From an uncultured delta proteobacterium (GTDB taxonomy: Bacteria; Desulfobacterota; Binatia; Binatales; Binataceae), in contig CAVQEQ010000004.1 in assembly GCA_963711565.1 (NCBI GenBank), positions 224,001-288,000 on the forward strand: a stretch of DNA of 64,000 nucleotides, given 5' to 3'. The position numbers and the translations under genes are program-made. Shown piece by piece: positions 10,474 through 28,075 of this stretch; the stretch's first letter is position 1; each line of letters starts with the position of its first letter. Below the pieces are notes generated by a model that saw nothing but the letters and a program-made list of their open reading frames with translations, did not search any database and was not told the DNA's origin.

Positions 10474-11640
10474 TTATGCCTTGCTACAAACGTAAATCGC
10501 CGCCGGCTGGCCGAGTACCGATACGCGAATGATCTTGCTCGGCGCGATCTTGCGCGTGCGCTCGAGCTCGCGCATCAGCCGCCACTCCAACGTCAGCATC
10601 ACCATCATGCCGCCGCTCCTGAGCACCCGCGCGAACTCTTTGAACCACAGTGGATACAGCTTTCGATTCTCGCCGTGCGAGCCGTAGCGCAGTCCCCACG
10701 GCAAGTTGGTGACGATTTTACTTACACTCGCGTCGCCGAGCGGCAGCGCCCCAGCGTCCCAGTTTTCGAGCTGGATTGGCTTGTAGCGCGTGCCGACGTT
10801 GACGCGCGCCGCCGCGAGCGCCGCATGATCGCGATCGCTGCCCAGCAGCATTGCGTACCGTCCCAGATGGGCCCGCTCGATCAATATCGTGCCCGCGCCG
10901 CAGAACGGATCGAGCGCCACGTCGTCCTCGCGCGGCCCGGACAGCCACGCGAGCGCCGCCGCACTCGACGCGCGGAGCGACGCCGGGCGATGGGCACTCT
11001 TGTACTCGCGATGCCGCATCTTGTCGTCGCTGAGCCGCACGGTAAGAAAAAACTCGGCGTCGATCATCGTCGCCCACAACTCAACGTCGGCGTCCTCTTC
11101 TTCCAGCCGCCAGGTGTGATCGCTGCGCTCGAGAATCCCGCGCTCGACCGCGCGCTGAAAATCGACGCGCCGATATTCATGCTCACCGGCCATCCTGGCG
11201 ATCACGCGGAACTTGAGCCTGCGGCCCGCGCGCGTCCCCGGCGAGACTTTGACGCGCGCCGCCAGCGCCGCCTCGACCAGCGGCGCCTCGCGCGACGCGC
11301 CGCGAATCTTGTCCAGTTCTTTGTTCTCCGGCCCGATAGCGGCGCGGTAGCCGGCCAGTCCGAACAGATCTTCAGCCGTGCGCAGTACGGCCAGCTTCTC
11401 GGCCGCCGGCGCGAAAAAAATCGTCATCCCGGCGCGATCGGGCACCACGCGCCGCGTGATCTCTCTCGCGCCGCTGATTCGGCCCGCTATCTCGTCAGCC
11501 GCGATTCCCTCGAACCCCGGCTGCGTATGCGCGATGTAGAGATTAGGGCCAAAGCGTAGCGGATGCGGATGCGCGCGCTCGGGCGACGCCGCCTTGCGAT
11601 CGCGCCCGGTATTTCGATACGTCTGGCGCGCGCTAATCAA
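10474..11640 (-). CDS. THUMP-type SAM-dependent N-methyltransferase (Trm14/TrmN/RlmL-like)
   Basis: HTQPGFEGIAADEI, HRPASLRASSAAAL, LDPFCGAGTILIE, IVTNLPWG. Start codon uncertain. Confidence 0.8.
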   Translation of the reverse strand: MISARQTYRNTGRDRKAASPERAHPHPLRFGPNLYIAHTQPGFEGIAADEIAGRISGAREITRRVVPDRAGMTIFFAPAAEKLAVLRTAEDLFGLAGYRAAIGPENKELDKIRGASREAPLVEAALAARVKVSPGTRAGRRLKFRVIARMAGEHEYRRVDFQRAVERGILERSDHTWRLEEEDADVELWATMIDAEFFLTVRLSDDKMRHREYKSAHRPASLRASSAAALAWLSGPREDDVALDPFCGAGTILIERAHLGRYAMLLGSDRDHAALAAARVNVGTRYKPIQLENWDAGALPLGDASVSKIVTNLPWGLRYGSHGENRKLYPLWFKEFARVLRSGGMMVMLTLEWRLMRELERTRKIAPSKIIRVSVLGQPAAIYVCSKA

Positions 11641-11651
11641 TTCTCAACCCG

Positions 11652-12215
11652 CTACTTCGAGCGTGACAGGTACTCGTGCGTCTCGGTGTTGATCGTGATC
11701 ATGTCGCCCTCGGCGACGAAATGCGGCACGTTGATTACCATCCCGGTCTCGAGCGTCGCGGGCTTCAGCGTGTTGTTCACCGCCGCCGTCTTCATCCCCG
11801 GGTCGGTCTGCACCACCTTGAGCGCGACCGTCTTGGGCAGAGTCACGTTGAGGGGAGTCGTCTCGTAGAACTCGACTTCGACTTCGAGGTTCGGCGTCAG
11901 GAATCCGACCACGTCCTCGATCAGTTCCTTGGGAATCGTAATCTGCTCGTAGTTCTCGGTGTTCATGAAATGGAAATCGTCGCCGTCCTGGTAGAGGAAC
12001 TGCATCTTGCTCTGATTCAGGATGACCCGCTCGACGCGGTCTTCCGAGCGGAACCGGTTCTCGGTCTGCGAGCCCGTCTTGACGTTGCGCAGCTTGGTCT
12101 GCACCATCCCGCGCCAGTTACCGGGGGTGATATGCGTGATCGTCATTATCCGCCACAGGTCCTTGTTGTATTCGACAATCATACCAGGGCGCAGTTGCGT
12201 CGCTTGAATCAGCAT
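11652..12215 (-). CDS. efp: Translation elongation factor P
   Basis: LRPGM, TPGNWRG loop, KLRNVKTG, QFLYQDGDDFHFMNTENYEQI, KPATLETG, VPHFV. Confidence 0.95.
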   Translation of the reverse strand: MLIQATQLRPGMIVEYNKDLWRIMTITHITPGNWRGMVQTKLRNVKTGSQTENRFRSEDRVERVILNQSKMQFLYQDGDDFHFMNTENYEQITIPKELIEDVVGFLTPNLEVEVEFYETTPLNVTLPKTVALKVVQTDPGMKTAAVNNTLKPATLETGMVINVPHFVAEGDMITINTETHEYLSRSK

Positions 12216-15583: not shown

Positions 15584-16522
15584 GTGCCGCATTCCGAATC
15601 TACCGACATCCCGCCAGCTGGCGTTCTCGCCCTCGACGGCCGCATCGTCGTCCGCGTGACCGGCGACGATCGCGCGTCGTTTTTCCACGGGATGTGCACT
15701 GCCGACGTGAAGGGCGCGCGCTTCGGTTCAATCCTGCCGGCGCTTTTTCTCACCGAGCATGCGCACGTAATCGCCGATGCGTTCATCTGGGTGACGCCTG
15801 CCGCGCTCCTGCTCGACATCGACGCCGACGCATGGACGCGCACGCGCGCGCATCTCGAAAAATTACTCGTCGCCGACGATGTGGAATTCGAAGACGCCGC
15901 AGACCTCGCCGTCATCAACGTCGAAGGACCTGCCGCCCTCGATGCAACCGCCAAATCGCCGCGCACGCCCTGGAGCTTCATCAAGGCCGGCAGCTCGCTG
16001 GTCGGCAACCTGCCACGCTACGGCGGCTCCGCGGTATCTGTCATCGCTCCGCGCGATTCGATTGATTCGACTATCGCCGCAATTCTCGCGAAGGTGCCGC
16101 ATTCGCGCCGCAGCGATCTCGCGATGCTCGAGACCATTCGCATCGAAAACGGCATCGCCCGCGTCGGCGTCGATACCACCGACAAAACCATCGCGCTCGA
16201 AGCGCGCCTCAATCGCTCGATCTCGTTCAACAAGGGATGCTACCTCGGCCAGGAAACCATCGAGCGCGCGACCGCCCGCGGCGGTTTGAAAAAACGGATG
16301 TTCGGACTTAAGTTCAATACTGCGGACGTGCCGAACGCCGGTGCGGTCCTCAGTCTGGACGGCAAGGAAGTCGGCCGCGTGAGCAGCAGTGTGCGTTCGC
16401 CGCGCTTCGGCGCGATCGGGCTTGCGATCCTGCATCACAGTGCATGGACGCTCGGCATCGAGCTGAAAGTGGGCGAGGGCGGCGGTGCAATCGTAACCGA
16501 GTTGCCGTTCGCGCAGAGTTGA
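15584..16522 (+). CDS. ygfZ: Folate-binding YgfZ/GcvT-family Fe-S/tRNA-modification factor
   Basis: VTGDDRASFFHGMCT and signature SFNKGCYLGQE. Confidence 0.9.
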   Translation: MPHSESTDIPPAGVLALDGRIVVRVTGDDRASFFHGMCTADVKGARFGSILPALFLTEHAHVIADAFIWVTPAALLLDIDADAWTRTRAHLEKLLVADDVEFEDAADLAVINVEGPAALDATAKSPRTPWSFIKAGSSLVGNLPRYGGSAVSVIAPRDSIDSTIAAILAKVPHSRRSDLAMLETIRIENGIARVGVDTTDKTIALEARLNRSISFNKGCYLGQETIERATARGGLKKRMFGLKFNTADVPNAGAVLSLDGKEVGRVSSSVRSPRFGAIGLAILHHSAWTLGIELKVGEGGGAIVTELPFAQS

Positions 16523-16560: not shown

Positions 16561-16704
16561 ATGGCTAACGTGCTCGGCAAGCGTTACATGTGCGAACACT
16601 GCGGCACCGAGGTGCTCTGCAACAAGGCCGGCACCGGCGGCCTCGAATGTTGCGACGTCGAGATGAAGATCAAGGAAGCCAAACCGCTTCCGAGTTCCGA
16701 CTAG
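16561..16704 (+). CDS. 47-aa desulforedoxin-like (CxxC...CC) protein with C-terminal KPLPSSD tail, not in the ORF track
   Basis: AAGGGAG RBS, then MANVLGKRYMCEHCGTEVLCNKAGTGGLECCDVEMKIKEAKPLPSSD*. Confidence 0.85.
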   Translation: MANVLGKRYMCEHCGTEVLCNKAGTGGLECCDVEMKIKEAKPLPSSD

Positions 16705-16713
16705 GACGACTCG

Positions 16714-18273
16714 GTGGTAAGCGCGCCCGGGAAAGCAGACCTGGTTCTGCACGAGGGTCTCGTCCTCGGCCACCCCGGCAGCGACTCGGTTGCAATCTCG
16801 CGCGGCTCGATTGCCGCGCACGGTGCATTCGCTGATCTGAAACCGCTGGTCGGTCCGCGAACTCATCTGATCAAGCTCGCCGGCCGCACCGTCGCCCCCG
16901 GCTTCATCGATTCGCATCTCCATTTTCGCGAGGCCGCCGCCGCTGCCACCGGAATTTCCGTGCAGCGATGCCGCACTGTCGGCGATCTGCTGGCCGACCT
17001 GCGGCTTGCCGCAGGCAAGACTCCGCCCGGCAACTGGATGCGCGCGTTCGGATGCGACGAAGCGTTGCTGCTGGACAGGCGCGGACCCACGCGCGCCGAG
17101 CTCGACGAATCGTTACCCAAGAATCCCCTGCGTCTCCGCCATCAGACCCTCCACGCCACGTGGCTGAATTCGCGCGCGATCGCACTGCTGGGCCTCGAGG
17201 CTCCCGGCTTCACTCCGCCGCTCGGCGCCAACATGGTCCGCGACGCTGCGGGTAAGCTCACCGGCCTTCTGGTCGGGATGGAGACGTGGCTGTCGGATCA
17301 TCTACCGCCCGTGACCGCGGCGGAAGCGGAATCGCGCGCGCGCATCATGAGCCGCGAGATGGCTGCGGCCGGAGTCACCGCGTTTACCGATGCCACCACG
17401 CGCAACGGTCCCGTCGAAGTCGAACAGTTCGCCAAGCTCGCGCAATCGAACGCGATATGCCAGCGCGTCGGGGTGATGATTGGCGGCCAGCATCTCGACT
17501 CCGCCGATCGATGCGAGCAGCTTGCTCGCGCCGCCGGGATCGCTCTTGCCGGCGCCAAGTTCATGCCCGGTTATCAGTACGACCCCGCCGGCCTGTCGCG
17601 GCCCGTCCTCCGCGCGCTCGAGCGCGGATTCGATTGCGCGTTCCACGTCACGGAAATCGAAGAGCTGGAAGAGTCGATTGCCGCTATCGAAGCTGCCAAA
17701 GCGCAGTTTTCCGGCGCACACGAGATCCCGCGCTTTCGGATCGAGCACGGCGGGATCATCACGCCCAACTACATCGACCGGCTGATGGCCGCCGGCGTGT
17801 GGGTCGTCACCAATCCCGGCTTCATCCACTTCCGCGGTCCCAAGTACGCCGCCGAGCCCGGCCTCGTCGCTCATCTGTATCGCGCGCGCAGTCTCAAAGA
17901 TGCCAATGTCCACCTGGTCGGCGCGACCGACGCGCCGGTGACGCCCGCGAAGCCGCTCGCTGCGATTGCCGCCGCCGTTTCGCGCACCTCGATCGACGGC
18001 GTCGAGCTCGCACCCGCCGAGGCGCTCTCGATGCATGACGCCTTCGCGCTCTTCACATCCGAAGCGGCGCGCCTCGCCCGTCTCGAGGCCGGCGTTATCG
18101 AGCCCGATCACCTGGCCGATCTGATCGTGCTGCCGCGCGACCCGTTCTCGCTGAATGCCGCCGATCTGATGAACCTCGTCGTCAACATAACCATCGTCGG
18201 CGGCCGTGTCGTTTACGAGCGCGGCCGTCCCGCCATCGCCAGCAGCGACAGCGCCGACCTGCGCTCCACCTGA
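16714..18273 (+). CDS. Metal-dependent amidohydrolase (Amidohydro_3 / YtcJ-like)
   Basis: PGFIDSHLHF, FHVTE, RIEHG, GATDAPV, LADLIVL, TIVGGRVVYE. Confidence 0.85.
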   Translation: MVSAPGKADLVLHEGLVLGHPGSDSVAISRGSIAAHGAFADLKPLVGPRTHLIKLAGRTVAPGFIDSHLHFREAAAAATGISVQRCRTVGDLLADLRLAAGKTPPGNWMRAFGCDEALLLDRRGPTRAELDESLPKNPLRLRHQTLHATWLNSRAIALLGLEAPGFTPPLGANMVRDAAGKLTGLLVGMETWLSDHLPPVTAAEAESRARIMSREMAAAGVTAFTDATTRNGPVEVEQFAKLAQSNAICQRVGVMIGGQHLDSADRCEQLARAAGIALAGAKFMPGYQYDPAGLSRPVLRALERGFDCAFHVTEIEELEESIAAIEAAKAQFSGAHEIPRFRIEHGGIITPNYIDRLMAAGVWVVTNPGFIHFRGPKYAAEPGLVAHLYRARSLKDANVHLVGATDAPVTPAKPLAAIAAAVSRTSIDGVELAPAEALSMHDAFALFTSEAARLARLEAGVIEPDHLADLIVLPRDPFSLNAADLMNLVVNITIVGGRVVYERGRPAIASSDSADLRST

Positions 18274-18286
18274 TGGCTTCGTGCTG

Positions 18287-19033
18287 ATGCAATCGAAGGC
18301 GAACGCTTCCAGCGCAGTGCTCTACGCCAGGCGCGGTCCCGTCGCATGGGTCACGCTCAATCGTCCCGCGCAATTCAACGCGTACAACGTGGCGATGCGC
18401 GACGACCTCTTTCAAATCCTCGCCGCCATCCACGACGACCGCGACGTGCGCGCGATGGTCCTGCGCGGCGCCGGCCAGGCCTTTTCGACCGGCGGCGATC
18501 TCGTCGAGTTCGGGATGGCGCCGTCGCCAATCGTCGCGCGATGGGTCCGCTTTCGCCGCGATGTGTGGGGGATGCTCCGCGCGCTGCCGATTCCGACCAT
18601 CGCCGCTATTCACGGTTACACAGTAGGCGGCGGACTCGAGATGGCGCTGTTGTGCGACCTCGCAATCGCCGCCGACGACACCCGCCTGTCCCTGCCCGAG
18701 ACCGGCGCCGGCATGATTCCCGGCGTCGCCGGCACGCAGACCGCCGCGCGCCGCCTTGGCCTCGGTCGCGCGCTGGACCTTTGCCTCACGGGCCGTTGGA
18801 TTGACGCCCAAGACGCGTTACTTGTAGGTATGGTCGCCGAAGTGGTCCCGCTGGCTGATCTGGATCGCCGCGCGCTGACGATCGCCCGCGCGTTTGCACG
18901 CGTCAGTCGCGAGCGTTCCGCGCTACTCAAGCTGGCGGTCTGGGGAGGCCTCGATTTGCCGCTGCGACAAGGACTCGAACTCGAACGCCGGCTCTGGAGG
19001 CGTTTACCCGCTGGGAGGAATCGCGCGCAGTGA
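18287..19033 (+). CDS. Enoyl-CoA hydratase/isomerase (crotonase), both catalytic Glu present
   Basis: VTLNRPAQFNA, AFSTGGDL, GGGLEMALLCD, LPETGAGMIPG. The stop overlaps the next GTG (GTGA). Confidence 0.88.
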   Translation: MQSKANASSAVLYARRGPVAWVTLNRPAQFNAYNVAMRDDLFQILAAIHDDRDVRAMVLRGAGQAFSTGGDLVEFGMAPSPIVARWVRFRRDVWGMLRALPIPTIAAIHGYTVGGGLEMALLCDLAIAADDTRLSLPETGAGMIPGVAGTQTAARRLGLGRALDLCLTGRWIDAQDALLVGMVAEVVPLADLDRRALTIARAFARVSRERSALLKLAVWGGLDLPLRQGLELERRLWRRLPAGRNRAQ

Positions 19034-20577
19034 ACACGGTTAACTTCGTCACGATCCCTGCTTCGATCGTGCCCGACCAGGAAATCCTGGTCTTCGGCTC
19101 GCGACGCCTTACCTATGCGGATCTGAACGACCAGGTCGCCTGCCTGTGCGCGGTCTTCAAGCAGTTCGGCCTCGCGCATGGCGACGTCATCGCCGTCCTC
19201 GACACCAACTCCGACCTCTACATCGAATGCTACTACGCCGCCGCCAAGGCCGGTCTCACGTTCCTGCCGCTGAACTATCGCGCCAAGGATGCCGAGCTCG
19301 AATACATGATCAACACCGCCGACGCCAAGGTGTTGCTCGTCGGCGATCGCTATCTCGAATTGATCGCGAAGATTCAGCCGCGGCTGCGCGCGAGCAAAGT
19401 CGTCGCGCTTGGCGACGGCGCCCGCGGATTGCCGCGCCTCGCCGATCTCATCGCCAAGGCCGAGCCCGACGAGGCCGAAGCTGAAGTCGAAGACGAGGAC
19501 ATTTCCATCCTCATGTACACCAGCGGCACCACCTCTCTACCGAAAGGCGTGCAGCTTCGCTTCCGCGATTTCGCCGCCTACGTCACCGCCAACGTCGAGA
19601 TGGCCGACGGCACCGACCGCGGCGTCGCGCTGGTGTGCGTGCCGTTTTACCACATCGCCGGAACCACCGCGTACATGACCACCATCTGGACCGGCCGCAA
19701 ACTGGTCATCATGCCGCAGTTCGACGCCAAGGCTTGGCTCGATCTCGTCGCGCGCGAGCACGTAACCCACGCCTTCGTCGTACCCACGATGATGAAACAG
19801 ATCATCGACGAGCCCGCATTCGCGAAAACCGATCTCTCCACGCTGACCAACCTCGCCTACGGCGGCGCGGCGATGCCGGTGCAGGTGATTCGCCGCGCGA
19901 TCGAGGTCTTCCCGAAAAAAGTCGGCTTCGTGAACGCCTACGGCCAGACCGAGACTACGTCATCGCTGACCGTGCTCGGTCCCGACGATCATCGAATCGA
20001 AGGCACGCCTGAGGAGGTCGAGCTAAAGCTCAAGCGCCTGAACTCGATCGGCAAGCCGCTGCCCAACGTCGAGATTCGCGTCCGCGACGAGGACGGCAAG
20101 TTCCTCCCGCACGGCCAGGTGGGCGAAATCATTATCCGCACCCCGCGCATCATGAAGGGCTACGCCGGCCGCGACGACGACGCGCGATTGCCCGATGGAT
20201 GGCGCGCGACCGGCGACCTCGGATGGCTCGACGACGACGGCTACGTCTTCTTCGCCGGGCGCAAGGACGACATGATCATCCGCGGCGGCGAAAATATAGC
20301 GCCCGCCGAAATCGAAACGGTCCTCATGAGCCATCCGGCGGTCGACGAATGCGCCGTTATCGGCGTGCCGTCCGTCGAATGGGGGCAAACCGTCAAGGCC
20401 TTCGTCGTCCCGCGCACGGGAATGAAGGTGGCCGAGTCCGAGCTCGAGGAATTCTGCCGCTCGCGTCTGGCGAGCTTCAAGCGTCCCGAGCGCATCGAGT
20501 TCATCGACGCGCTGCCGAAAAATCCGCTCGGCAAAATCCTGCGCAAAGATCTGCGCGCGCCCGCTGGAGGCGTCTGA
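19030..20577 (+). CDS. Adenylate-forming acyl-CoA synthetase (AMP-binding)
   Basis: YTSGTTSLPKG, NAYGQTET, TGDLG, GRKDDMIIRGGENI, LPKNPLGKILRK. Confidence 0.92.
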   Translation: MNTVNFVTIPASIVPDQEILVFGSRRLTYADLNDQVACLCAVFKQFGLAHGDVIAVLDTNSDLYIECYYAAAKAGLTFLPLNYRAKDAELEYMINTADAKVLLVGDRYLELIAKIQPRLRASKVVALGDGARGLPRLADLIAKAEPDEAEAEVEDEDISILMYTSGTTSLPKGVQLRFRDFAAYVTANVEMADGTDRGVALVCVPFYHIAGTTAYMTTIWTGRKLVIMPQFDAKAWLDLVAREHVTHAFVVPTMMKQIIDEPAFAKTDLSTLTNLAYGGAAMPVQVIRRAIEVFPKKVGFVNAYGQTETTSSLTVLGPDDHRIEGTPEEVELKLKRLNSIGKPLPNVEIRVRDEDGKFLPHGQVGEIIIRTPRIMKGYAGRDDDARLPDGWRATGDLGWLDDDGYVFFAGRKDDMIIRGGENIAPAEIETVLMSHPAVDECAVIGVPSVEWGQTVKAFVVPRTGMKVAESELEEFCRSRLASFKRPERIEFIDALPKNPLGKILRKDLRAPAGGV

Positions 20578-21362
20578 CGCCGCGGCCCGCTAAAAAATCC
20601 CGACCGCGCCGCGCCGCGCGCTCCACGCCCGCCGGCGTAATCGAAGTTTCCTTCGCCAGCGGATGCGTTAACGCTACCCTTCGATTCCCCGGCGCGCGCG
20701 CGATTGTCACGCCCGCGATGGCCGTCCGCTTGCTCGAGCTGTTCGAGCACGTTGAGGACGACGACGCCGCCCACATGCTCGCGATCACGGGCGCCGGTTC
20801 CGCGTTCTGCATCGGCTTGGACGACGCCGTCGATCCGCGCCTCGTCGAATCGCTCGCCGTGCTCTCGAAGCCCACCGTCGCGATCATCAACGGCGACGCC
20901 TTCGATGAAGGATTGGAACTCGCGATGGCCGCCGACATTCGCGTCGCGATTTCATCCGCTCGTTTCGCGATCACGCAAATCAAACGCGGCACGATGCCCC
21001 ATTTCGGCGCGACTCAGCGCCTCCCGCGCCTTATCGGCGCGGCCAACGCTATCCGCCTGATGCTGACCGGGACGGCCCTGGGAGCCGACGACGCGATGCG
21101 CACGGGACTCGTCACTTATCTTGCTGACAGGCCCGCCGAACTCGCCGCTACCAGCGGCCGCGTCGCCGAGGCTATTCTGAGCCGCGCGCCGCTCGCCGCG
21201 CGCCTGGTCAAGGACGCGGTGCTCAAGGGTTACGACATGACTTTGGACCAGGGCATCAGGCTTGAGGAGGATCTATACGCCCTGCTACAAACGACTTCCG
21301 ACCGCGCCGAAGGCGTCCGCGCTTTTCTCGAGAAGCGCAAACCGCTGTTCAGGGGCGCGTGA
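20574..21362 (+). CDS. Divergent crotonase-family protein; start uncertain (CTG overlapping the upstream TGA, or ATG 20718)
   Basis: KPTVAIINGDAFDEGLELAMAADIR, FAITQIKRG, GATQRLPRLIG, DRAEGVRAFLEKRKPLF. Confidence 0.8.
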   Translation: MTPRPAKKSRPRRAARSTPAGVIEVSFASGCVNATLRFPGARAIVTPAMAVRLLELFEHVEDDDAAHMLAITGAGSAFCIGLDDAVDPRLVESLAVLSKPTVAIINGDAFDEGLELAMAADIRVAISSARFAITQIKRGTMPHFGATQRLPRLIGAANAIRLMLTGTALGADDAMRTGLVTYLADRPAELAATSGRVAEAILSRAPLAARLVKDAVLKGYDMTLDQGIRLEEDLYALLQTTSDRAEGVRAFLEKRKPLFRGA

Positions 21363-21417
21363 ACTCTCGGCGCAAAATTTTAAGCGACAACGCGACTGAA
21401 AGGATCAGGATCCACGA

Positions 21418-21537
21418 ATGGCAAATCAGCTCGGCAAAGTTTATATCTGCGGCAACTGCAAATCGCAGGTCATCGTCACCAAGGCCGGCAACGGCCAGCT
21501 CAAGTGTTGCGGCGTTCCGATGGAACAAAAAAAGTAA
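21418..21537 (+). CDS. 39-aa desulforedoxin-like (CxxC...CC) protein, paralog of 16561-16704, not in the ORF track
   Basis: AGGA RBS, then MANQLGKVYICGNCKSQVIVTKAGNGQLKCCGVPMEQKK*. Confidence 0.85.
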   Translation: MANQLGKVYICGNCKSQVIVTKAGNGQLKCCGVPMEQKK

Positions 21538-21591: not shown

Positions 21592-21831
21592 ATGCTCTAC
21601 TGGATTATAGTCGGAATAATCGCAGGCTGGTTGGCCGGGAAGCTGGTGCGCGGCGCGGGCTTCGGCTTGATCGGCGATCTCATCCTCGGCCTCGTCGGTG
21701 GCCTTGTCGGCGGATGGATCTTCGGCGCACTCGGTATTGCGGGACCCAACGGCCTGATCGGCGGCATCATCATCGCTACCGTCGGCGCCGTCATCCTGGT
21801 CTGGATCTCGCATATGATTCGCGAGGCCTGA
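21592..21831 (+). CDS. GlsB/YeaQ/YmgE (transglycosylase-associated) membrane protein
   Basis: WIIVGIIAGWLAG...GLIGDLILGLVGGLVGGWIF...IATVGAVILV. Confidence 0.9.
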   Translation: MLYWIIVGIIAGWLAGKLVRGAGFGLIGDLILGLVGGLVGGWIFGALGIAGPNGLIGGIIIATVGAVILVWISHMIREA

Positions 21832-21850
21832 GCAACCCCGCGCGCCGCGC

Positions 21851-22240
21851 TCACCCGCTAGCGCGGATGCGCAGCTCTTCGGCCTGCTTGCGAATCGGCT
21901 CCGGCAGCCTCACTTCCTGCGCGTCGATCCAGTTGCTCACGAGCCGGTAGAACTCGCGCGCCGGTTCGTAGAACACGTGGATCACGACGTCGTCGTAGTC
22001 GAGCACCACCCAGTGCGCATGGTGCATCCCCTCGACCGACAGTGCCCGTTGCCCGGCCTTGCCCAGCGCCTCCTCGATTCCGCGCGCAATCGCCTGCACC
22101 TGCACGTCGGAGCGCCCGGTCGCCACCAGGAAATAATCCGCCACCGATTTCAGATGCTCGGCTTCGAGCACGACCAGGTCGTAGGCCTTTTTCTCCAGCG
22201 CCGCTTCGGCCGCGACGAATGCCTTCTTCAGCGCCGTCAA
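21851..22240 (-). CDS. rsfS: Ribosome silencing factor
   Basis: KKAYDLVVL, ADYFLVATG, WVVLDYDDVVIHVF, REFYRL; follows nadD. Confidence 0.92.
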   Translation of the reverse strand: MTALKKAFVAAEAALEKKAYDLVVLEAEHLKSVADYFLVATGRSDVQVQAIARGIEEALGKAGQRALSVEGMHHAHWVVLDYDDVVIHVFYEPAREFYRLVSNWIDAQEVRLPEPIRKQAEELRIRASG

Positions 22241-22331
22241 GAAATCTGACCGCGATTGGCCGGCGGGTTCGCCGTTTGTCGATGGTTCGATCGGGATTGA
22301 AATGAACGCGAGATTTTAAGCAGAGAAATCC

Positions 22332-22970
22332 TCAATACAGCGCGTGGCGCTGGATATAATCGACGACATCGATCGGCATCAGGTACCGGACCGATTCACC
22401 GTGTTGCAGTTTGCCGCGAATTTCAGTCGCTGAAATGGGGAAGAACGTGGTGTCGACGAAAGATAGCGTTTGTCCGCTCGAATGCACGTAGTGATCGTCT
22501 GCCTGAGTGTAGCCAAACCGTTTGAGCGCGGCAACTGAAATTCGCGGCGGACCGTCTTGCCCTTCGGTTAACCTTGTATGAACGGCGAAATTGCACAGCC
22601 GCGCCAGTTCATCGGGCTCCTTCCACGATTCCAGCTCGGCAAACTGATCCGCGCCCATCAGCAGGTACAGCGTCGCCGGCTGCCTCAAGGTAGCCAGGAA
22701 GTAGCGCACCGTCTCTATCGTGTACGATCGCCCGGCGCGCTGAATCTCCACGTCGGAGGTCATGAAATGCCGGTTGCCCTTGGTCGCCAGCCGCACCATC
22801 GCCAGCCGATGCACCGCCGGGGCCAATTCGCCTTCCGCCTTATGCGGCGGCGATGCGGCCGGGATGAAATACACGAGGTCCAGTTGGAGCGCCTCGCGAA
22901 CCTCCTCGGCCGCGCGCAAATGCCCGAGATGAATCGGATTGAAACTGCCGCCGAACAATCCTACCCGCAT
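22332..22970 (-). CDS. nadD: Nicotinate-nucleotide adenylyltransferase
   Basis: GGSFNPIHLGHL, PPHK, SYTIET, LMGADQ, ISATEIR. Confidence 0.95.
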   Translation of the reverse strand: MRVGLFGGSFNPIHLGHLRAAEEVREALQLDLVYFIPAASPPHKAEGELAPAVHRLAMVRLATKGNRHFMTSDVEIQRAGRSYTIETVRYFLATLRQPATLYLLMGADQFAELESWKEPDELARLCNFAVHTRLTEGQDGPPRISVAALKRFGYTQADDHYVHSSGQTLSFVDTTFFPISATEIRGKLQHGESVRYLMPIDVVDYIQRHALY

Positions 22971-23009
22971 TTTTCTTCACTGCGCCCCCGTCGCAACGGG
23001 TCGCCGCGT

Positions 23010-24263
23010 TCAGGCGCGGACTTGTCCAGTCCCGCGAAGGACGTACTTATAGGTGGTCAACTCGTTGAGTCCCATCGGCCCGCGCGCGTGCAGCCGATTA
23101 GTCGAAATTCCCGTTTCCGCCCCGAATCCAAATTCGAAACCGTCGGTGAAACGCGTCGACGCGTTGACGTAAACCGTAGCCGAATCGACTTCACGTTCAA
23201 AGCGCGCGGCAGTTTCCGCGTCATCGGTAACGATCGCGTCGGCAAGATGCGATCCATGACGTGCGATAAACGCGATCGCCTCTTCAACCGAATCCACAAC
23301 TTTCACCGCCAGGATCAGGTCGAGATATTCCGCGTCCCAGTCTTCGTCGGTCGCCGCGCGCACCGCCGGCACGATTTTTCGCGTCGCGTCGTCGCCGCGA
23401 AGCTCAACGCCGGCCGCGGTCAATCGCGCGGCCACCGCCGGGAGGAATTTCTCCGCGACCGCGTGATGTACCAATAATTTCTCCATCGAATTGCAGACCG
23501 ACGGCCGCGAGCATTTCGCATTGACGCAGATCTCCTCGGCCATCTTCAGATTCGCCGCCCGATCGACGTAGGTGTGGCATTTGCCGTCGAAATGCGGCAA
23601 CAGAGGCACCTCCGATCCGTCCAACGCGTCCTTCAACGACTTGCCCCCGCGCGGAATTATCAGGTCGATCAACTCGCGGCTCAGCTTCATCACCTGGATC
23701 ACTTCGCGATCCGGATCGCGAATGAATGTCGCCGCATCAGCCTCGAGCCCCGCATCCTTCAACGCGCGCGAGATCAATCCTGCCAGGAATCCATTGCTGC
23801 TGAGCGCCTCGCTGCCTCCGCGTAGTACCACGGCGTTGCCGGCTTTGAGCGTCAGCGCGGCCGCATCGACGGTGACGTTGGGCCGCGACTCGTAAATCAT
23901 CGCGATCAGGCCGATCGGCACTCTGATCTTTTCGATCTTCAACCCGTTGGGCCGCGTCCACTTCTCGATCGCAGTGCCGACCGGATCGTGGAGCGCCTCG
24001 ACTTGAAGCACACCCGCAGCCATGGCCTCGATTCGCTTGTCATCGAGCGTCAGCCGCTCGACGAACGCACCGCCGCGTCCGCTGTTGCGCGAGCGCTCGA
24101 GGTCGATCGCGTTGGCGCGAATAATTTCCGCGCGCGACTCGCGTATCGCGCTGGCCAGCCGCCGCAGAAAATCGTTTTTCTGCGCCGTAGTCACGATCGC
24201 CATCCCCGGCGCCGCCGCCCGCGCCCGCCGCAGCGCGGCAACAGTATCAGCTTCAACCGTCAT
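23010..24263 (-). CDS. proA: Glutamate-5-semialdehyde dehydrogenase
   Basis: IYESRPNVT, IIPRGG, PSVCNSME, NASTRFTDGFEFGFGAE, HARGPMGL. Start at ATG 24263. Confidence 0.95.
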   Translation of the reverse strand: MTVEADTVAALRRARAAAPGMAIVTTAQKNDFLRRLASAIRESRAEIIRANAIDLERSRNSGRGGAFVERLTLDDKRIEAMAAGVLQVEALHDPVGTAIEKWTRPNGLKIEKIRVPIGLIAMIYESRPNVTVDAAALTLKAGNAVVLRGGSEALSSNGFLAGLISRALKDAGLEADAATFIRDPDREVIQVMKLSRELIDLIIPRGGKSLKDALDGSEVPLLPHFDGKCHTYVDRAANLKMAEEICVNAKCSRPSVCNSMEKLLVHHAVAEKFLPAVAARLTAAGVELRGDDATRKIVPAVRAATDEDWDAEYLDLILAVKVVDSVEEAIAFIARHGSHLADAIVTDDAETAARFEREVDSATVYVNASTRFTDGFEFGFGAETGISTNRLHARGPMGLNELTTYKYVLRGTGQVRA

Positions 24264-24316
24264 CGAACTTCGAGAATATATCCCGAGGCCAGTCAAATAA
24301 ACCGCACGCCGAGAAT

Positions 24317-24386
24317 ACTGGGTGCAGGGGTCACCCCTGCCGAAGGAAGCGTGAAACCCACCGCGGGGTTCACATTCAATAAAGTG
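24317..24386 (+). repeat. 70-bp double-hairpin repeat, family A copy 2 (between proB and proA)
   Basis: ACTGGGTGCAGGGGTCACCCCTGCCGAAGGAAGCGTGAAACCCACCGCGGGGTTCACATTCAATAAAGTG. Confidence 0.92.
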
Positions 24387-24390
24387 GACG

Positions 24391-25536
24391 CTACGCGATC
24401 TCTTTGATCAGCACGAAGTTGTCGCGATGGATAATCTCATCGGCAACTTTGTAACCAAGCAGAGCAGGAATCTCAGTCGAACGCCGCCCAGCCACCTTCA
24501 ACACATCCGACGCCGGATAATTCACCAACCCGCGGCCGAACTCGACGCCGTCGGGATCGAGCAGGCTCACGCAGTCGCCGCCGCCGAAATCTCCGCGCAC
24601 CTCGCGCACGCCCGAGGGCAGCAGCGACCGGCCGCGATTGCGGAGCGCGTCGGCCGCGCCCTTGTCGACGGCGAGCGATCCTGCCGGCCGCAGCGCGAAC
24701 GCGATCCAATGCTTTCTGCTCTTGAGCCGCACTCCCGCCGGCACGATCAGCGTGCCCGCTTCGCGCGCCGGATCGAGCGCGGCGGTAACGATTCCCGCCT
24801 CGCGCCCGCGCGCGATAATCACGGCGATTCCCGCGCGTGCCGCCTGCCGCGCCGCTTTCAACTTGGTCGCCATCCCGCCGACACCCAGCGGCCCCGCGTT
24901 CTCGGCGACCAGCCCGTGCATCTCGGCCTCCGGATCGCTGATCACAGGAATCAGCCGCGCGTCGGTACGCTCGCGCGGGTCGCCAGTCAGCACGCCGTCA
25001 ACATCGCTCAAAATAATCAGAAGCTGCGCCTGCACGAGGCTCGCGACCAGCGACGACAGCACGTCGTTGTCGCCGAGCCGGATTTCCTCGACCGCGACCG
25101 TGTCGTTCTCGTTGACGATCGGAATCACGCCCGCGCCGAGTAACTCGGTGACGGTTTGATTCGCGTTCTGACGGCGACGGCGTTCCGCCAAATCCTGATG
25201 GGTCAGCAAGATTTGCGCGACGCTTCGATCGTGGCCGCCGAATGCATGCGCCCACGCCGACATCAGCTCGATTTGCCCGGTGGCGGCGGCCGCCTGCCGC
25301 GCTGCGATCGTTGCGCCGTGAAGCTTCGAGAGTCGCGCACGTCCCGCGGCTACAGCGCCAGACGTGACGATCACGATTTCCTGGCCGGCCTGCACCGCCG
25401 ACTCGATCTGTGACGTTAGCTGTTCGATCACATCGACGCGCAGGCCGTCGGCGTCGGACAGCACAGCGCTGCCGACCTTGATCACGATCCGCCGCGCGCG
25501 CGCGACGGTCGATTCCTTATAGTTCAGTTGGGACAT
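24391..25536 (-). CDS. proB: Glutamate 5-kinase with PUA domain
   Basis: VIKVGS, TSGAV, NENDTV, GDNDVLS, GGMATKL, SLLPSGV, IHRDN. Confidence 0.95.
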   Translation of the reverse strand: MSQLNYKESTVARARRIVIKVGSAVLSDADGLRVDVIEQLTSQIESAVQAGQEIVIVTSGAVAAGRARLSKLHGATIAARQAAAATGQIELMSAWAHAFGGHDRSVAQILLTHQDLAERRRRQNANQTVTELLGAGVIPIVNENDTVAVEEIRLGDNDVLSSLVASLVQAQLLIILSDVDGVLTGDPRERTDARLIPVISDPEAEMHGLVAENAGPLGVGGMATKLKAARQAARAGIAVIIARGREAGIVTAALDPAREAGTLIVPAGVRLKSRKHWIAFALRPAGSLAVDKGAADALRNRGRSLLPSGVREVRGDFGGGDCVSLLDPDGVEFGRGLVNYPASDVLKVAGRRSTEIPALLGYKVADEIIHRDNFVLIKEIA

Positions 25537-26536
25537 GCGCCGGCTGATCCATCGTGTGAAGCATGCGCGCGATCGCCGCGACCAGCGGTGCGAGTTTCTC
25601 GCCCTTGTCAGCCGAAATCGGAAACACTTCGAGACCGGTGAGCTTGCGCAGCTTGCGCGCGGTCTTTGTCACTTCGGCCGCATCGAGCAGATCGATTTTG
25701 TTGAGCGCGACAATCGCGAGGCGCTCCGTCAGCACCGGATCGAACGCCGCGATCTCACCGCGCACAGTCGTAAACGCGGCCGCGGGATCGTCCGCAGCGT
25801 CGAGTACGTAAACGATCATCTGCGTGCGCATGATATGCCGCAGGAAACGAATCCCAAGCCCGTGTCCCTCGTGTGCTCCTTCGATCAGCCCGGGAATATC
25901 GGCGAGCGTGAAGCTCTCCTGATCGCCAATCGACACGCGGCCGATATTCGGCGCCAGCGTCGTGAACGGGTAGGGCGCGATCTTGGGCCGCGCCGCGCTG
26001 AGCGCGGTCAGCAGCGTCGATTTGCCCGCATTGGGAAGTCCCACGAGGCCCGCCTCCGCGACCAGCCGCAACTCCATGCGGACCCATCGCTGCTCGCCCG
26101 CGGTTCCCGGCGTCGCGATTCGCGGCGAGCGCCGAGTCGACGACGCGAAATGCATGTTGCCGCGGCCGCCTTCGCCACCCTGCGCGATTACCGCCGTGTC
26201 ACCCGGCATCACAAGGTCCGCGAGCGTCTTGCCGCTCTCGTCATCAAATACGATCGTGCCGGGCGGCACTCGCACGACAACGTCGTCGGAGCCGTGGCCG
26301 TACTGTTCCTTGCCGCGGCCGGACTCGCCGTCCTTCGCGATCAGACGCGGCTGATATTTGAAATCGAGCAGCGTCGACAAGCCTTCATCGACCTGGAAGA
26401 TGACGCTGCCGCCGCGCCCGCCGTTGCCGCCCGCCGGTCCGCCGAACGGCCGATACTTCTCGCGCAGAAACGCGATTGCACCGTCGCCGCCCTTCCCGGC
26501 GTGCACGAATACCCTGGCTTCATCGATAAATCGCAT
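25517..26536 (-). CDS. obgE: GTPase ObgE/CgtA
   Basis: MRFIDE, GGPAGGNGGRGG, GLPNAGKSTL, YPFTTL, DIPGLIEGA, NKID. Confidence 0.96.
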   Translation of the reverse strand: MRFIDEARVFVHAGKGGDGAIAFLREKYRPFGGPAGGNGGRGGSVIFQVDEGLSTLLDFKYQPRLIAKDGESGRGKEQYGHGSDDVVVRVPPGTIVFDDESGKTLADLVMPGDTAVIAQGGEGGRGNMHFASSTRRSPRIATPGTAGEQRWVRMELRLVAEAGLVGLPNAGKSTLLTALSAARPKIAPYPFTTLAPNIGRVSIGDQESFTLADIPGLIEGAHEGHGLGIRFLRHIMRTQMIVYVLDAADDPAAAFTTVRGEIAAFDPVLTERLAIVALNKIDLLDAAEVTKTARKLRKLTGLEVFPISADKGEKLAPLVAAIARMLHTMDQPAHVPTEL

Positions 26537-26580
26537 GGCGGCGTGATCACGTCAGTCTCTGCGCTGTGCTCGATTCGAGC

Positions 26581-26628
26581 AACCTAACCCCTAATCCCCT
26601 TCCCATAGTGGGAAGGGGAACAATCGCG
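26581..26628 (+). repeat. Palindromic REP-like element, family B
   Basis: AACCTAACCCCTAATCCCCTTCCCATAGTGGGAAGGGGAACAATCGCG (stem TCCCCTTCCCA/TGGGAAGGGGA); related copy at 44726-44780. Confidence 0.8.
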
Positions 26629-26644
26629 CTTGGATTTAGTCTTC

Positions 26645-27673
26645 TTACAGACAAATCTCCGCTAGCGCGCGGACCGTGTTGATGTCGCCGGTGCCGATCA
26701 GCATCGTCTTGACCGGTGACGCCTTCCACACCTTGAGCTGGTCCGCGATTCGCTCGCGATTACCGACCAGCGCGACCTCATCGACCAGCTTGTCCGGCAC
26801 CAGCGCCATCGCCTCGGCCTTCTTGCCGGCGAGGAACAGGTCCTGGATTTTCCCCGCAACGTCTTCATAGCCGAGCCGCTTGGCGTAGTCGTTGTAGAAA
26901 TTTTTCGCGCGCGCGCCCATCCCGCCGATGTACAGCGCGAGCATCCCCTTCACCGGCATCCGGCACTTCTCAACGTCCGGTCCCATGATGCAGGTGACGA
27001 ACGGCGCGACGTCGAAATTGTCGAGGCTCTTTTTGCCGCCGGTCTTCGCGAAGCCTTCCTTCAGCGGCGCATCATAGATGTCCCAGCGCTCCGGATTCAT
27101 CCAGACCGGAATCACGCCGTCCGCGATTTCCCCCGCGAGCGCGATTCCCTTGGGGCTGATCGACGCGGTGTAGATTGGCATGTCCTTGCGCCCGTGCAGG
27201 ATGCTCTTGAGCGGCTTGCCCAGGCCCGAGGCGCCGGGTCCGGTATACGGGATGTCGAATTCCTTGCCGTGATGCTCGACGGGAACTTCGCGCGCGAGAA
27301 TCGTGCGAACGATCTCGATGTACTCGCGCGTGCGCTGCAGCGGTTTGCCGTACGACACGCCGTGCCAGCCCTCGACCACCTGCGGACCCGACGGCCCGAT
27401 ACCGAGGATGAAGCGGCCGCCCGACAGCGCGTCGATCGTCATCGCGGTCATCGCAGTCATGGCGGGAGTGCGTCCCGGCATCTGCATGATACCGGTGCCG
27501 AGCCGGATCTTTTTGGTCAGCGCGCCGATCCACGCCAGCGGCGCGATCGCGTCGGAGCCGTACGCCTCAGCCGTCCACACCGAGTCGAAGCCAACGCGCT
27601 CGGCCTCGAGGATCGTGTCCATCGGCAGGCCCATCTGCGCGCCCGAATAGCCTGAGAGTAAACCTAGTCGCAT
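26645..27673 (-). CDS. LLM-class F420-dependent oxidoreductase
   Basis: [60 protein letters not shown]. Confidence 0.9.
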
Positions 27674-27728
27674 CGAAATTCCTCCCGTCGCGGAAGAGTC
27701 CGCGACACGTGTCGATTAAAGTCGCGTC

Positions 27729-27764
27729 AAAAAAAGAAGCCCCACGGCATTGCCGCAGGGCTTC
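27729..27764 (-). terminator. Rho-independent terminator after rplU-rpmA
   Basis: Minus-strand GAAGCCC...GGGCTTC stem followed by T7. Confidence 0.8.
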
Positions 27765-27787
27765 AGCTCAATTACGTTCCAAACGAT

Positions 27788-28075
27788 CTACGCAGACGCC
27801 CCTGCGGTGTTTTCGCTGCCGGCGGGGAGCGGCTCGACGCTCACTTGCCGCTTCTCACCCTTCGGCTCGTACTTAACCACACCGTCGATGAGCGCGTAAA
27901 TCGTATAGTCGCGGCCAAGGCCGACGTTGCGTCCCGGATGCACGCGCGTGCCGCACTGGCGGACGAGGATATTGCCGGCCTTGACGGTCTGGCCCGCGTA
28001 AATTTTGATACCACGGCGCTGGCCCGGACTATCGCGGCCATTGCGCGTCGAACCCTGGCCTTTTTTGTGCGCCAC
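27788..28075 (-). CDS. rpmA: 50S ribosomal protein L27
   Basis: [39 protein letters not shown]. Confidence 0.97.

Follow-up and report, generated by a model that had tools for sequence, protein, structure and literature searches.

Closest described carrier and partner proteins

LysW, of the LysW/ArgW (AmCP) group, is an acidic protein with a tail of the EDWGE type, and its ligase LysX belongs to the ATP-grasp family. Phosphopantetheinylated ACP and PCP proteins are helical bundles with a DSL-type serine. A C-terminal Glu is described for LysW (PMC12998189). MbtH-like proteins (MLPs) are characterized by three conserved Trp residues (PMC10510592). In malonate decarboxylase, the carrier MdcC is accompanied by the transferase MdcA and the crotonase-fold pair MdcD–MdcE (PMC5534430). 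The spacing CxxC-X15-CC is given for the desulforedoxin domain (PMC3116461).

The two mini-proteins considered here, A and B, resemble each of these in part, but are not LysW, MbtH, MdcC or a superoxide reductase (SOR) partner. With LysW/ArgW they share small size, a metal knuckle in some members, an ATP-dependent ligase next door and an acidic residue that is conserved at the C-terminus and likely forms the working end. However, the tail PSSD ends in Asp and not Glu, the linked ligase is an ANL/AMP-binding class I enzyme and not LysX, the computed charge of A is neutral and that of B basic, the hydrolase is a dispensable Amidohydro_3 enzyme in place of the dedicated LysK, and a CoA-transferase can replace the ligase. 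The likeness to LysW/AmCP drawn in the preliminary description is thus functional at most.

Like MLPs, the mini-protein is a very small, separate partner whose gene lies next to that of an adenylating enzyme, with predicted docking on the large N-terminal domain; unlike them, it has another fold, partners a stand-alone acyl-CoA-type ligase, is predicted to insert its tail into the enzyme and is kept where the ligase is absent. Neither A nor B matched the MbtH profile at E values up to 0.1, and both lack Trp. The malonate decarboxylase ACP system has a similar parts list (a carrier of about 10 kDa, a transferase or ligase that forms thioesters, and two crotonases that make up a heteromer), but MdcC carries phosphoribosyl-dephospho-CoA on the internal Ser25, attached by MdcB and MdcG, and its fold is also unlike that of the mini-protein. 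An MdcC-type prosthetic group was rejected, as CitG/MdcB (PF01874) was found in none of five genomes with the mini-protein system, the control giving hits in 5 of 14. The mini-protein also differs from phosphopantetheinylated ACP and PCP proteins: the fused relative is modeled as all-beta, and no PP-binding Pfam match was found.

Gene content and order of the locus

The window is the whole stretch of 64,000 nucleotides that was analysed, and all genes discussed lie on its + strand. Mini-protein A (16561..16704; 47 aa) combines a CxxC-X15-CC hairpin with the C-terminal tail KPLPSSD and corresponds to the C-terminal half of the fused form described below; a ygfZ/CAF17-like gene (15584..16522) lies directly upstream. 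A is followed by an Amidohydro_3 metallo-hydrolase (16714..18273), a frequent but dispensable cluster member, and by the core component ECH1 (18287..19033), a crotonase-fold protein of a dedicated clade possessing both catalytic Glu residues. Next come a class I adenylate-forming ligase of the acyl-CoA type (19030..20577), also of a dedicated clade and the predicted partner of A and B, and the degenerate crotonase ECH2 (20640..21362), in which one catalytic Glu is substituted with Gln. Mini-protein B (21418..21537; 39 aa) has the same Cys4 spacing as A, lacks the tail and corresponds to the N-terminal half of the fused form. Two starts are uncertain: for ECH1, ATG 18287 is likely and the frame is open from 18206; for ECH2, the first ATG is at 20718 and no canonical start codon occurs earlier.

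The preliminary description had placed two micro-ORFs with ribosome-binding sites at the ends of an operon of amidohydrolase, crotonase, AMP-ligase and degenerate crotonase. The coordinates and translations of both were confirmed, each is preceded by a purine-rich RBS-like run, and domain matches agree with the gene content. Codon patterns identify A and B as real genes, conserved across Binatia, and not a chance pattern: in comparison with 80 related loci, the codon differences of A are synonymous in 924 cases and non-synonymous in 371, and the stop codon comes immediately after Asp47 in all 80; for B, compared across 60 loci, the figures are 492 and 270, respectively. The order ygfZ-A-amidohydrolase-ECH1-ligase-ECH2-B is kept in 59 of the 64 loci long enough to show it. 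A promoter and terminator scan of the locus gave nothing above chance. In a single soil metatranscriptome available as contigs, from which level, strand and co-transcription are not readable, 5% of the words were present and related contigs span A together with parts of the operon.

The amidohydrolase is an accessory, as is the metal site. The hydrolase is missing from eight Binatia clusters opened; whole-genome searches in five genomes of such clusters did not find it in two and gave a weak match in three, and it is present in 5 of 80 fused-type loci. Orthologues also occur near several Desulfobacterota clusters. Its proposed role in releasing cargo from the tail was rejected on account of these absences. 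The ygfZ neighbour, conserved in Binatia only, was rejected as a core part because the six non-Binatia clusters opened lack it; the gene is probably not part of the core.

A widespread fused family with a free C-terminal Ser-Ser-Asp

The relatives of A and B include an unnamed fused protein of about 100 aa, represented by 3,894 clusters. The preliminary description had mentioned two-domain proteins ending in KPLP(S/A)SD beside such ligases in other phyla and proposed that the two genes are their split form. Such proteins were found, and sequence matches show A and B to be this one widespread mini-protein in split form, B the N-half and A the C-half; in other Desulfobacterota the two genes are adjacent, in the order B-A, and B likely pairs with A. 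No Pfam or NCBIfam model specific to the family was found, and literature searches, covering listings and the beginnings of abstracts, returned no paper on it.

Across the homologues compared, the constant feature of the family is the free C-terminal Ser-Ser-Asp and not the Cys4 site. The motif [SAGT][SAGT]D stands at the extreme C-terminus in 122 of 150 distant representatives (five of the 150 end in Glu) and the tail is present in 119 of the 120 best fused hits, so the conserved and terminal tail assumed in the preliminary description holds. Asp103 occupies every row of a 90-row fused alignment, hand-chosen from whole-looking hits, and a terminal Asp is found in all 80 Binatia A sequences. 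Ten longer hits occur among 7,993 scored candidates; all ten retain the C-terminal tail, and several resemble frameshift read-throughs. Apparent fusions to ligase, P450, CoA-transferase or thiolase sequence are single, frameshift-like records and were rejected as fusion evidence.

The Cys4 site and its relation to desulforedoxin

Both A and B possess Cys11, Cys14, Cys30 and Cys31 in the arrangement CxxC-X15-CC, which is the desulforedoxin-type motif. The PF06397 profile scores 28.7 bits with B, above the 23-bit cut-off, and 21.4 bits with A, below it. Both proteins fall below the TIGR00319 cut-off and show weak sequence matches to 1dxg/1vzg. Motif and size are shared with desulforedoxin (Desulfovibrio gigas Dx; PDB 1dxg/1cfw) and with the N-terminal domain of desulfoferrodoxin (PF06397, TIGR00319). 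A differs from desulforedoxin by its invariant GKR strand and by a tail of nine residues with Asp at its end. Most fused members have lost the metal ligands, and the link is to a CoA ligase and crotonases, with the SOR partner missing. The SOR domain PF01880 was not found in the organism's own genome (94.9% complete; the control gave hits in 3 of 14 genomes), in agreement with the preliminary description, and a linkage to SOR was rejected on this ground. No redox enzyme is a constant neighbour of the mini-protein genes among the loci opened. Weak matches in about 100 Desulfobacterota genomes were not counted; they resemble ordinary desulfoferrodoxin domains, covered in their Cys4 part alone and lying in frames of about 125–160 aa, or, among those opened, Dx-like genes that lack the tail.

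Conservation of the Cys4 site is strict in A and B of Binatia and in anaerobic Desulfobacterota. Of 122 distant representatives that bear the tail, 60 retain the site in the tail domain, and 36 lack both the full Cys4 set and a version with three Cys and a substitute. Because none of the 120 best fused hits retains Cys4 in the tail domain, the alignments indicate that the metal site is not essential to the family. Fused members without Cys4 take the gene slot of the split pair (G201), and gene placement in G201 and G032 implies that Cys-free fused homologues stand in for B and A.

The predicted structure of the fused form is all-beta (pLDDT 92.5), with two hairpins and no helix of four or more residues, which is in keeping with the Dx dimer. 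The fused G036 member has no PF06397 match, and a Foldseek search of the fused model against the PDB returned nothing at E ≤ 0.001. A desulforedoxin fold is weakly suggested by the sequence matches and the predicted secondary structure.

A dedicated ligase and crotonase accompany the mini-protein

The partner ligases form one clade (27 rows; SH-aLRT 98 in a quick tree), with intact adenylation motifs and a retained Arg84. Judged by its position in the motif Pro-x-Asn-x-Arg, this residue likely corresponds to Arg87 of 4-chlorobenzoate ligase, described as CoA-binding (PMC6122825). The mini-protein is present in 55 of 71 Binatia genomes, mostly in single copy, and the clade ligase in 53 of these 55; in the other two, the contig ends immediately after the gene and truncates the ligase. 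Sixteen of the 71 genomes have neither, and none has the ligase without the mini-protein. The ECH1 clade is found in 54 of the 55.

Of 19 plasmid records, 17 have a clade ligase adjoining the mini-protein. The same holds for 45 of 80 metagenome loci, and in 29 of the 80, many of them short, no clade ligase was seen. In the genomes and loci surveyed, the mini-protein is accompanied by a single ligase clade and a single crotonase clade. Its neighbours are CoA-thioester catabolic genes. ECH1 of fused-type loci has a degenerate extension at its N-terminus that resembles the C-terminal part of ECH2.

Predicted complex with the ligase

The complex was predicted for a homologous pair (G036), whose A-like domain is 53% identical to A and whose ligase is 39% identical to that of the window. 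It scored 0.70 against 0.00 for the best control; the score mark is reached by 116 of 157 solved pairs and by 2 of 215 mismatched pairs. The runs have at least 65% of contacts in common, with a partner pLDDT of at least 85. In the model, the two-hairpin body docks on the ligase N-terminal domain via its GKR and L-x-T-K strands, and the interface comprises tail residues 96–101 and ligase residues 201, 231, 265, 267, 289–293 and 302, which, by analogy with ANL pocket positions, would form the far end of the acyl pocket. At this far end, a small Ala lies in 53 of 55 rows of clade ligases; among the pocket positions, a conserved basic residue for the second carboxylate of the terminal Asp is absent, and Tyr, Asn and Ser are found.

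The last two residues, Ser102 and Asp103, have no confident placement, and the model therefore gives the carboxylate no position at the AMP site. The preliminary description had asked whether the tail enters the ligase active site; in the homologous pair it is predicted to run along the acyl-pocket positions, with its end unplaced. The unplaced carboxylate, the use of a homologous pair, the mapping of the pocket by analogy and the lack of a conserved basic residue count against reading the tail as a substrate.

Replacement of the ligase by a CoA-transferase in one family

In one Desulfobacterota family (f12), B and A are kept in 8 of 61 genomes, at ten loci that all end in SSD; the pair is duplicated in places and some copies are frameshifted. 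These genomes are kin from three genera and count as approximately one event. The clade ligase was detected in none of the 61; six were rechecked with all candidates scored, the best reaching 428 bits, and one ligase-negative genome bearing B and A is a single 5.5-Mb contig. In 8 of the 10 loci (7 of 8 genomes), B is immediately preceded by the beta gene of a family I CoA-transferase, in which the catalytic Glu is kept where the region is covered. Comparison of this transferase with the clade ligase showed the two to be unrelated. The swap would be equally expected if ligase and transferase simply supply ECH1 with the same activated small acid and the mini-protein also binds ECH1/ECH2, which speaks against the substrate reading.

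Proposed mechanism and alternatives

We tentatively favour a scheme in which the tail aspartate is the acid that the ligase makes into a CoA thioester, so that the mini-protein would serve the crotonase pair as tethered substrate or carrier. In its favour are the invariant terminal acid, the single ligase clade with intact adenylation motifs, the co-occurrence in Binatia, the predicted complex and, as the observation that best separates the readings, the f12 loci with a transferase where the ligase would be. Sequence and gene order show that A and B match the two domains of a fused protein able to replace both. The body is predicted to dock on the ligase N-terminal domain while the tail threads along the acyl-pocket positions. 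The carboxylate of the terminal Asp would then be adenylated, giving a protein-Asp-CoA thioester, and where the ligase has been lost the CoA-transferase would likely make the identical thioester. In the weakest step, ECH1 and the degenerate ECH2 may act on this protein-bound thioester or pass it along. Literature searches yielded no description of an ANL ligase that acts on the C-terminus of a protein.

The main alternative, possible but less probable, is that A and B form a non-covalent, MbtH-like subunit whose tail seals or moulds the far end of the acyl pocket and thereby lets the ligase convert a small polar acid to an ordinary acyl-CoA for the crotonases. One-to-one co-occurrence with mostly single copies in Binatia, the catabolic neighbours, a ligase resembling a normal acyl-CoA ligase, and confident predicted docking in which tail residues 96–101 alone are placed all suit it, and small MLPs that raise the stability or activity of adenylation domains offer a precedent in the source consulted (PMC10510592). 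However, decay would be expected without the ligase, and yet B and A with intact SSD persist, even duplicated, in eight genomes where no clade ligase was detected; a free terminal acid is also a stricter demand than docking needs.

Returning to the substrate scheme, an extension that we regard as unlikely makes the ligase an E1-like ANL activator; the activated tail would then either serve the neighbouring CoA-transferases as a protein-bound source of CoA or be attached to another molecule in the manner of a Pup or ubiquitin tag. More doubtful still is a tail that plugs the ligase, and perhaps also the transferase, as a pseudo-substrate and so inhibits or gates it, the Cys4 hairpins serving, where they are kept, as a switch that responds to metal or redox state. 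The predicted tail position within the acyl pocket and the strict retention of Cys4 in Binatia and anaerobic Desulfobacterota would fit such a switch, but most fused members occupy the slot of the split pair without Cys4, and the lack of any Binatia genome with the ligase alone is unusual for a dispensable regulator.

The full LysW-like scheme, in which the ligase amide-links cargo to the tail, the crotonases process it and the amidohydrolase releases it, is very improbable. It draws on the invariant terminal acid, the small metal knuckle, the ATP-dependent ligase and the metallo-hydrolase in one operon, and on the hydrolase orthologues near Desulfobacterota clusters; against it stand the patchy distribution of the hydrolase and the replacement of the ligase by a CoA-transferase, which makes thioesters and not amides. 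The least probable reading treats A and B as common desulforedoxin-type carriers of electrons or metal that happen to share the operon, as the cysteine spacing and the weak PF06397, 1dxg and 1vzg matches are outweighed by the loss of Cys4 across fused homologues, a genome without an SOR domain and the absence of a constant redox-enzyme neighbour.

Implications

Thousands of clusters without a Pfam or NCBIfam model of their own are tied one-to-one to enzymes annotated as generic long-chain acyl-CoA ligases, and the cultured, non-pathogenic hosts Sphingobium and Rhodococcus carry the fused form. If the mini-protein is a subunit only, this would account for a possible lack of activity when such ligases are expressed on their own, and the MbtH principle would reach beyond NRPS. 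If the tail is a substrate, the clade ligases are mis-annotated, the acid substrates of ANL enzymes would come to include the C-terminus of a protein, and the mini-protein would be a new kind of carrier needing no attached prosthetic group. Should the E1-like reading be true, an undescribed protein-activation system would extend across Binatia, other Desulfobacterota, actinomycetes and sphingomonads.

Micro-Genes A and B and Their Operon

The micro-genes A (16561–16704; 47 aa, ending in KPLPSSD) and B (21418–21537; 39 aa) enclose genes encoding an Amidohydro_3 protein, the crotonase ECH1, a class I AMP-forming ligase and a second, degenerate crotonase, ECH2. The positions and translations that the preliminary description gave for A and B are correct. 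Both show the CxxC-X15-CC spacing that PMC3116461 gives for the desulforedoxin domain. Matches to PF06397 are weak (21.4 bits for A and 28.7 bits for B; cut-off 23), and those homologues of A that carry an organism name come from Candidatus Binataceae. A superoxide reductase, described earlier as absent, was indeed not found as a domain in the organism's own genome (94.9% complete).

Comparison of A with 80 related loci revealed 924 synonymous and 371 non-synonymous codon differences, the use of several codons for both tail serines, and a stop codon immediately behind Asp47 in all 80; for B, 60 loci yielded 492 synonymous and 270 non-synonymous differences. The synonymous excess in both genes and, for A, the stop kept after Asp47 indicate that they are under selection. 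The complete gene order is kept in 59 of the 64 loci of sufficient length.

At window 20578–20730, ECH2 has no ATG, GTG or TTG start before 20718, yet its similarity to relatives begins near 20640, where the codon is ATC; it may use a non-canonical start or be truncated at its N-terminus. A ygfZ/CAF17-like gene (window 15584–16522) ends 38 bp upstream of A, a junction kept in Binatia despite rearrangement of the remaining cluster (G235, G201). Two clusters (G032, G194) have lost A and B, and ygfZ remains there with the enzymes; no ygfZ neighbour was seen in non-Binatia clusters. The other surrounding genes are ordinary neighbours: an RNA methyltransferase and elongation factor P upstream (window 10474–12215; names read from translations) and, after the operon (window 21592–28075), a transglycosylase-associated protein (PF04226) followed by minus-strand rsfS, nadD, proA, proB, obgE, an LLM-type oxidoreductase gene and rpmA (names likewise read from translations).

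Split and Fused Forms of the Mini-Protein

A and B are two halves of one protein. In genome G036, a 103-aa gene ending 16 bp ahead of a related ligase encodes a B-like N-terminal half and an A-like C-terminal half including the tail, bearing out the earlier suggestion of a fused two-domain form. This form comprises 3,894 clusters at 90% identity, the top Atlas clusters being unnamed; the G036 member matches nothing in Pfam at E up to 1, and for two further members the matches are all sub-threshold. Elsewhere in Desulfobacterota A and B are separate but adjoining genes, with B first. In G201 the slot of A holds a fused gene that is Cys-free (L235 6402–6710), and B has been lost; in G032 both A and B are missing from the cluster, with a fused gene elsewhere in the genome.

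The conserved features of the family are a GKR strand and the tail. Its terminal position, proposed at the outset, is widely conserved: the C-terminal end is P[SA][SA]D in 119 of the 120 best fused hits and [SAGT][SAGT]D in 122 of 150 distant representatives. The metal site, by contrast, is not constant: four cysteines are present in the tail domain of 0/120 best fused hits and 60/122 tail-bearing representatives. An AlphaFold2 model of the fused protein is all-beta (mean pLDDT 92.5, about 70 at the last residues). Sequence searches returned weak desulforedoxin hits and nothing else, Foldseek of this model against PDB gave no match at E up to 0.001, and neither route turned up a solved structure for a mini-protein of this kind.

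Several variants were also observed. Binatia-type fused B-A genes without metal cysteines lie distant from the ligase in G032, G037, G194, G217 and G224 (loci L021 8758–9156, L023 7975–8331, L241, L243 and L244). A double-Cys4 subfamily of about 95–101 aa ends in Ser-Glu or Ala-Ala-Phe in place of Ser-Ser-Asp (P0235, P0257, P0293, P0298, P0305, P0324), and in a subfamily of 104–118 aa an unrelated charged N-terminal region replaces the B domain ahead of the A domain and tail (P0267, P0284, P0286, P0292, P0301, P0303, P0306, P0314, P0327, P0335, P0340, P0344, P0353). G189:C10 has, outside the cluster, a diverged third copy of A whose N-terminus is altered and whose tail is longer (L240 4492–4833). 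Other Desulfobacterota loci contain tail-less, unannotated desulforedoxin-like micro-genes, either tandem double-domain forms (L128, L133, L137) or single ones adjoining rubrerythrin-like genes (L134, L135, L138; name read from translations).

Association with a Ligase Clade and ECH1

Ligases adjoining mini-protein genes belong to one clade (27 of 41 rows; SH-aLRT 98 in a quick tree), ranging across Binatia, other Desulfobacterota, actinomycetes and sphingomonads. The proposed linkage to the ligase is borne out in 71 evenly drawn Binatia genomes, which as kin are not independent trials: with up to 22 ligase candidates scored per genome, 55 carry the mini-protein, 53 carry the clade ligase in one copy each, and 16 have neither. 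In the two genomes with the mini-protein but no scored ligase, a contig end cuts the ligase directly behind the gene. The ligase is adjacent to the mini-protein gene in 17 of 19 plasmid records (7 judged from annotated regions, 10 from coordinates) and about 15 and 28 kb off in the remaining two. Among 80 fused-type metagenome loci, assigned by best BLAST hit and in a few cases at low identity, it is adjacent and co-oriented in 45, further off or opposed in 6, and not seen in 29, many of them short.

ECH1 forms a clade of its own, with both catalytic Glu residues and clade-specific Glu and Arg residues; all but one of the 55 mini-protein-bearing Binatia genomes (54) have a member of this clade, as do 11 of the 80 fused-type loci. 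The weakest ECH1-like matches come from three genomes of one family (G198, G229, G237) with neither mini-protein nor clade ligase.

A CoA-Transferase in the Probable Place of the Ligase

In G177, a genome of the Desulfobacterota family f12, the cluster order is ECH2-ECH1-[CoA-transferase alpha, beta]-B-A, and no clade ligase was found in the genome. The transferase beta belongs to family I, its catalytic Glu aligning with that of solved relatives, and is unrelated to the clade ligase. Eight of 61 genomes drawn from f12 carry B and A (10 loci, 3 genera, SSD end in all), and none of the 61 yielded a clade ligase among up to 25 candidates scored. For six of these eight, including the single 5.5-Mb contig of G278, all ligase candidates were scored, the best reaching 428 bits vs 543–768 bits for clade ligases of the Binatia draw. 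Eight of the 10 loci, from 7 of the 8 genomes, have the beta gene directly ahead of B; at the other two, transporter-like genes or a family III transferase stand there. The transferase is frameshifted in two complete clusters, and one second copy is a fragment. Taken together, these genomes amount to about one event.

In G104 (L125 1698–4327), a family I CoA-transferase pair lies on the opposite strand between two B copies, beside an intact clade ligase (identity to the f12 pair 66% for beta, 53% for alpha); this arrangement may represent an intermediate step in the ligase-to-transferase swap. Genes recurring beside four f12 clusters (L248, L250, L252, L254) encode 2-hydroxyacyl-CoA dehydratase-like subunits with an activator (read from translations), paired CoA-transferases of family III and an enzyme of the NMO family.

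Predicted Complex and Possible Mechanism

The complex was modelled for the adjacent G036 pair, each partner supplied as an alignment. It scored 0.70 vs 0.00 for the best control; the score mark, which 116 of 157 solved complexes reach as opposed to 2 of 215 mismatched pairs, is a rough guide with custom alignments. Runs share at least 65% of contacts, with partner pLDDT of at least 85, and the model thus supports, short of proof, binding of the mini-protein to the ligase. The predicted interface involves both halves of the partner (residues 6–9, 20, 22 and 61–64, 75, 77–78) and tail residues 96–101; on the ligase it includes the first helix, the post-P-loop helix 170–177 with clade-specific Glu174, and residues 201, 231, 265, 267, 289, 291, 293, 302, 305 and 307–308. 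As the listed confident pairs all lie in the body, tail–ligase contacts are deduced from the two residue lists. In this model of a homologous pair, tail residues 96–101 are placed at the ligase, whereas Ser102 and Asp103 have no confident placement. By presumed ANL pocket positions (NRPS specificity code and 4-chlorobenzoate ligase numbering), the acyl pocket would be lined by residues 267, 293 and 302 and continued outward by 201, 231, 265, 289 and 291; in 53 of 55 clade rows, residue 293 is Ala. All adenylation motifs are intact in the ligase. It also has the Arg that, by motif position, is equivalent to the one contacting the CoA phosphate in 4-chlorobenzoate ligase (PMC6122825).

We tentatively favour, at somewhat less than even chances, a tail acting as tethered substrate: the mini-protein would dock on the ligase, its terminal Asp would be adenylated and transferred to CoA, and ECH1/ECH2 may then act on the protein-bound thioester. 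A tail that is itself the activated acid is expected to be retained, and the persistence of B and A in f12, where no clade ligase was found, fits this. Against it count the lack of a conserved basic residue at the presumed pocket positions, the so far hypothetical adduct, the two unplaced residues and a model built on homologues. Less probable is a non-covalent, MbtH-like subunit shaping the ligase pocket: a ligase-only subunit should have decayed in f12, yet B and A are retained there, unless ligase and transferase both activate one small acid and the mini-protein also serves the crotonases. The mini-protein may work like MLPs (PMC10510592), but has neither an MbtH match nor Trp. That the tail is an inhibitory plug seems improbable.

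An amide cargo released by the amidohydrolase, the scheme first proposed, is more doubtful still. This enzyme lies outside the core: 8 opened Binatia clusters lack it (7 chosen from the Binatia draw for short A-B or A-ligase spacing), it appears in 5 of the 80 fused-type loci, and whole-genome searches in five genomes with such clusters gave no match in two and weak matches only in three. Least probable of all is a plain electron carrier; A and B have a motif in common with desulforedoxin, but the mini-protein has no SOR link and its metal site is not conserved.

Relation to Known Systems

The working mode may resemble that of LysW, loaded on its C-terminal Glu (PMC12998189), but the mini-protein differs in its last residue, in the class of its ligase, in charge (A has 7 acidic and 6 basic residues, B has 1 and 6) and in the release enzyme. 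The parts list is similar to that of malonate decarboxylase (PMC5534430), but CitG/MdcB was found in 0/5 genomes with the system. No description of the motif, family or context was found in titles and opening lines of abstracts of openly accessible papers, nor any mention of the family in the available portions of PMC8305020 and PMC11726168.

The carrier idea of the preliminary description survives in altered form, with amidohydrolase and metal outside the core. Because f12 swaps the ligase for a transferase, the minimal system would consist of the mini-protein, ECH1 (with or without ECH2) and a CoA-thioester-making enzyme; this small-protein system is real, conserved and undescribed.
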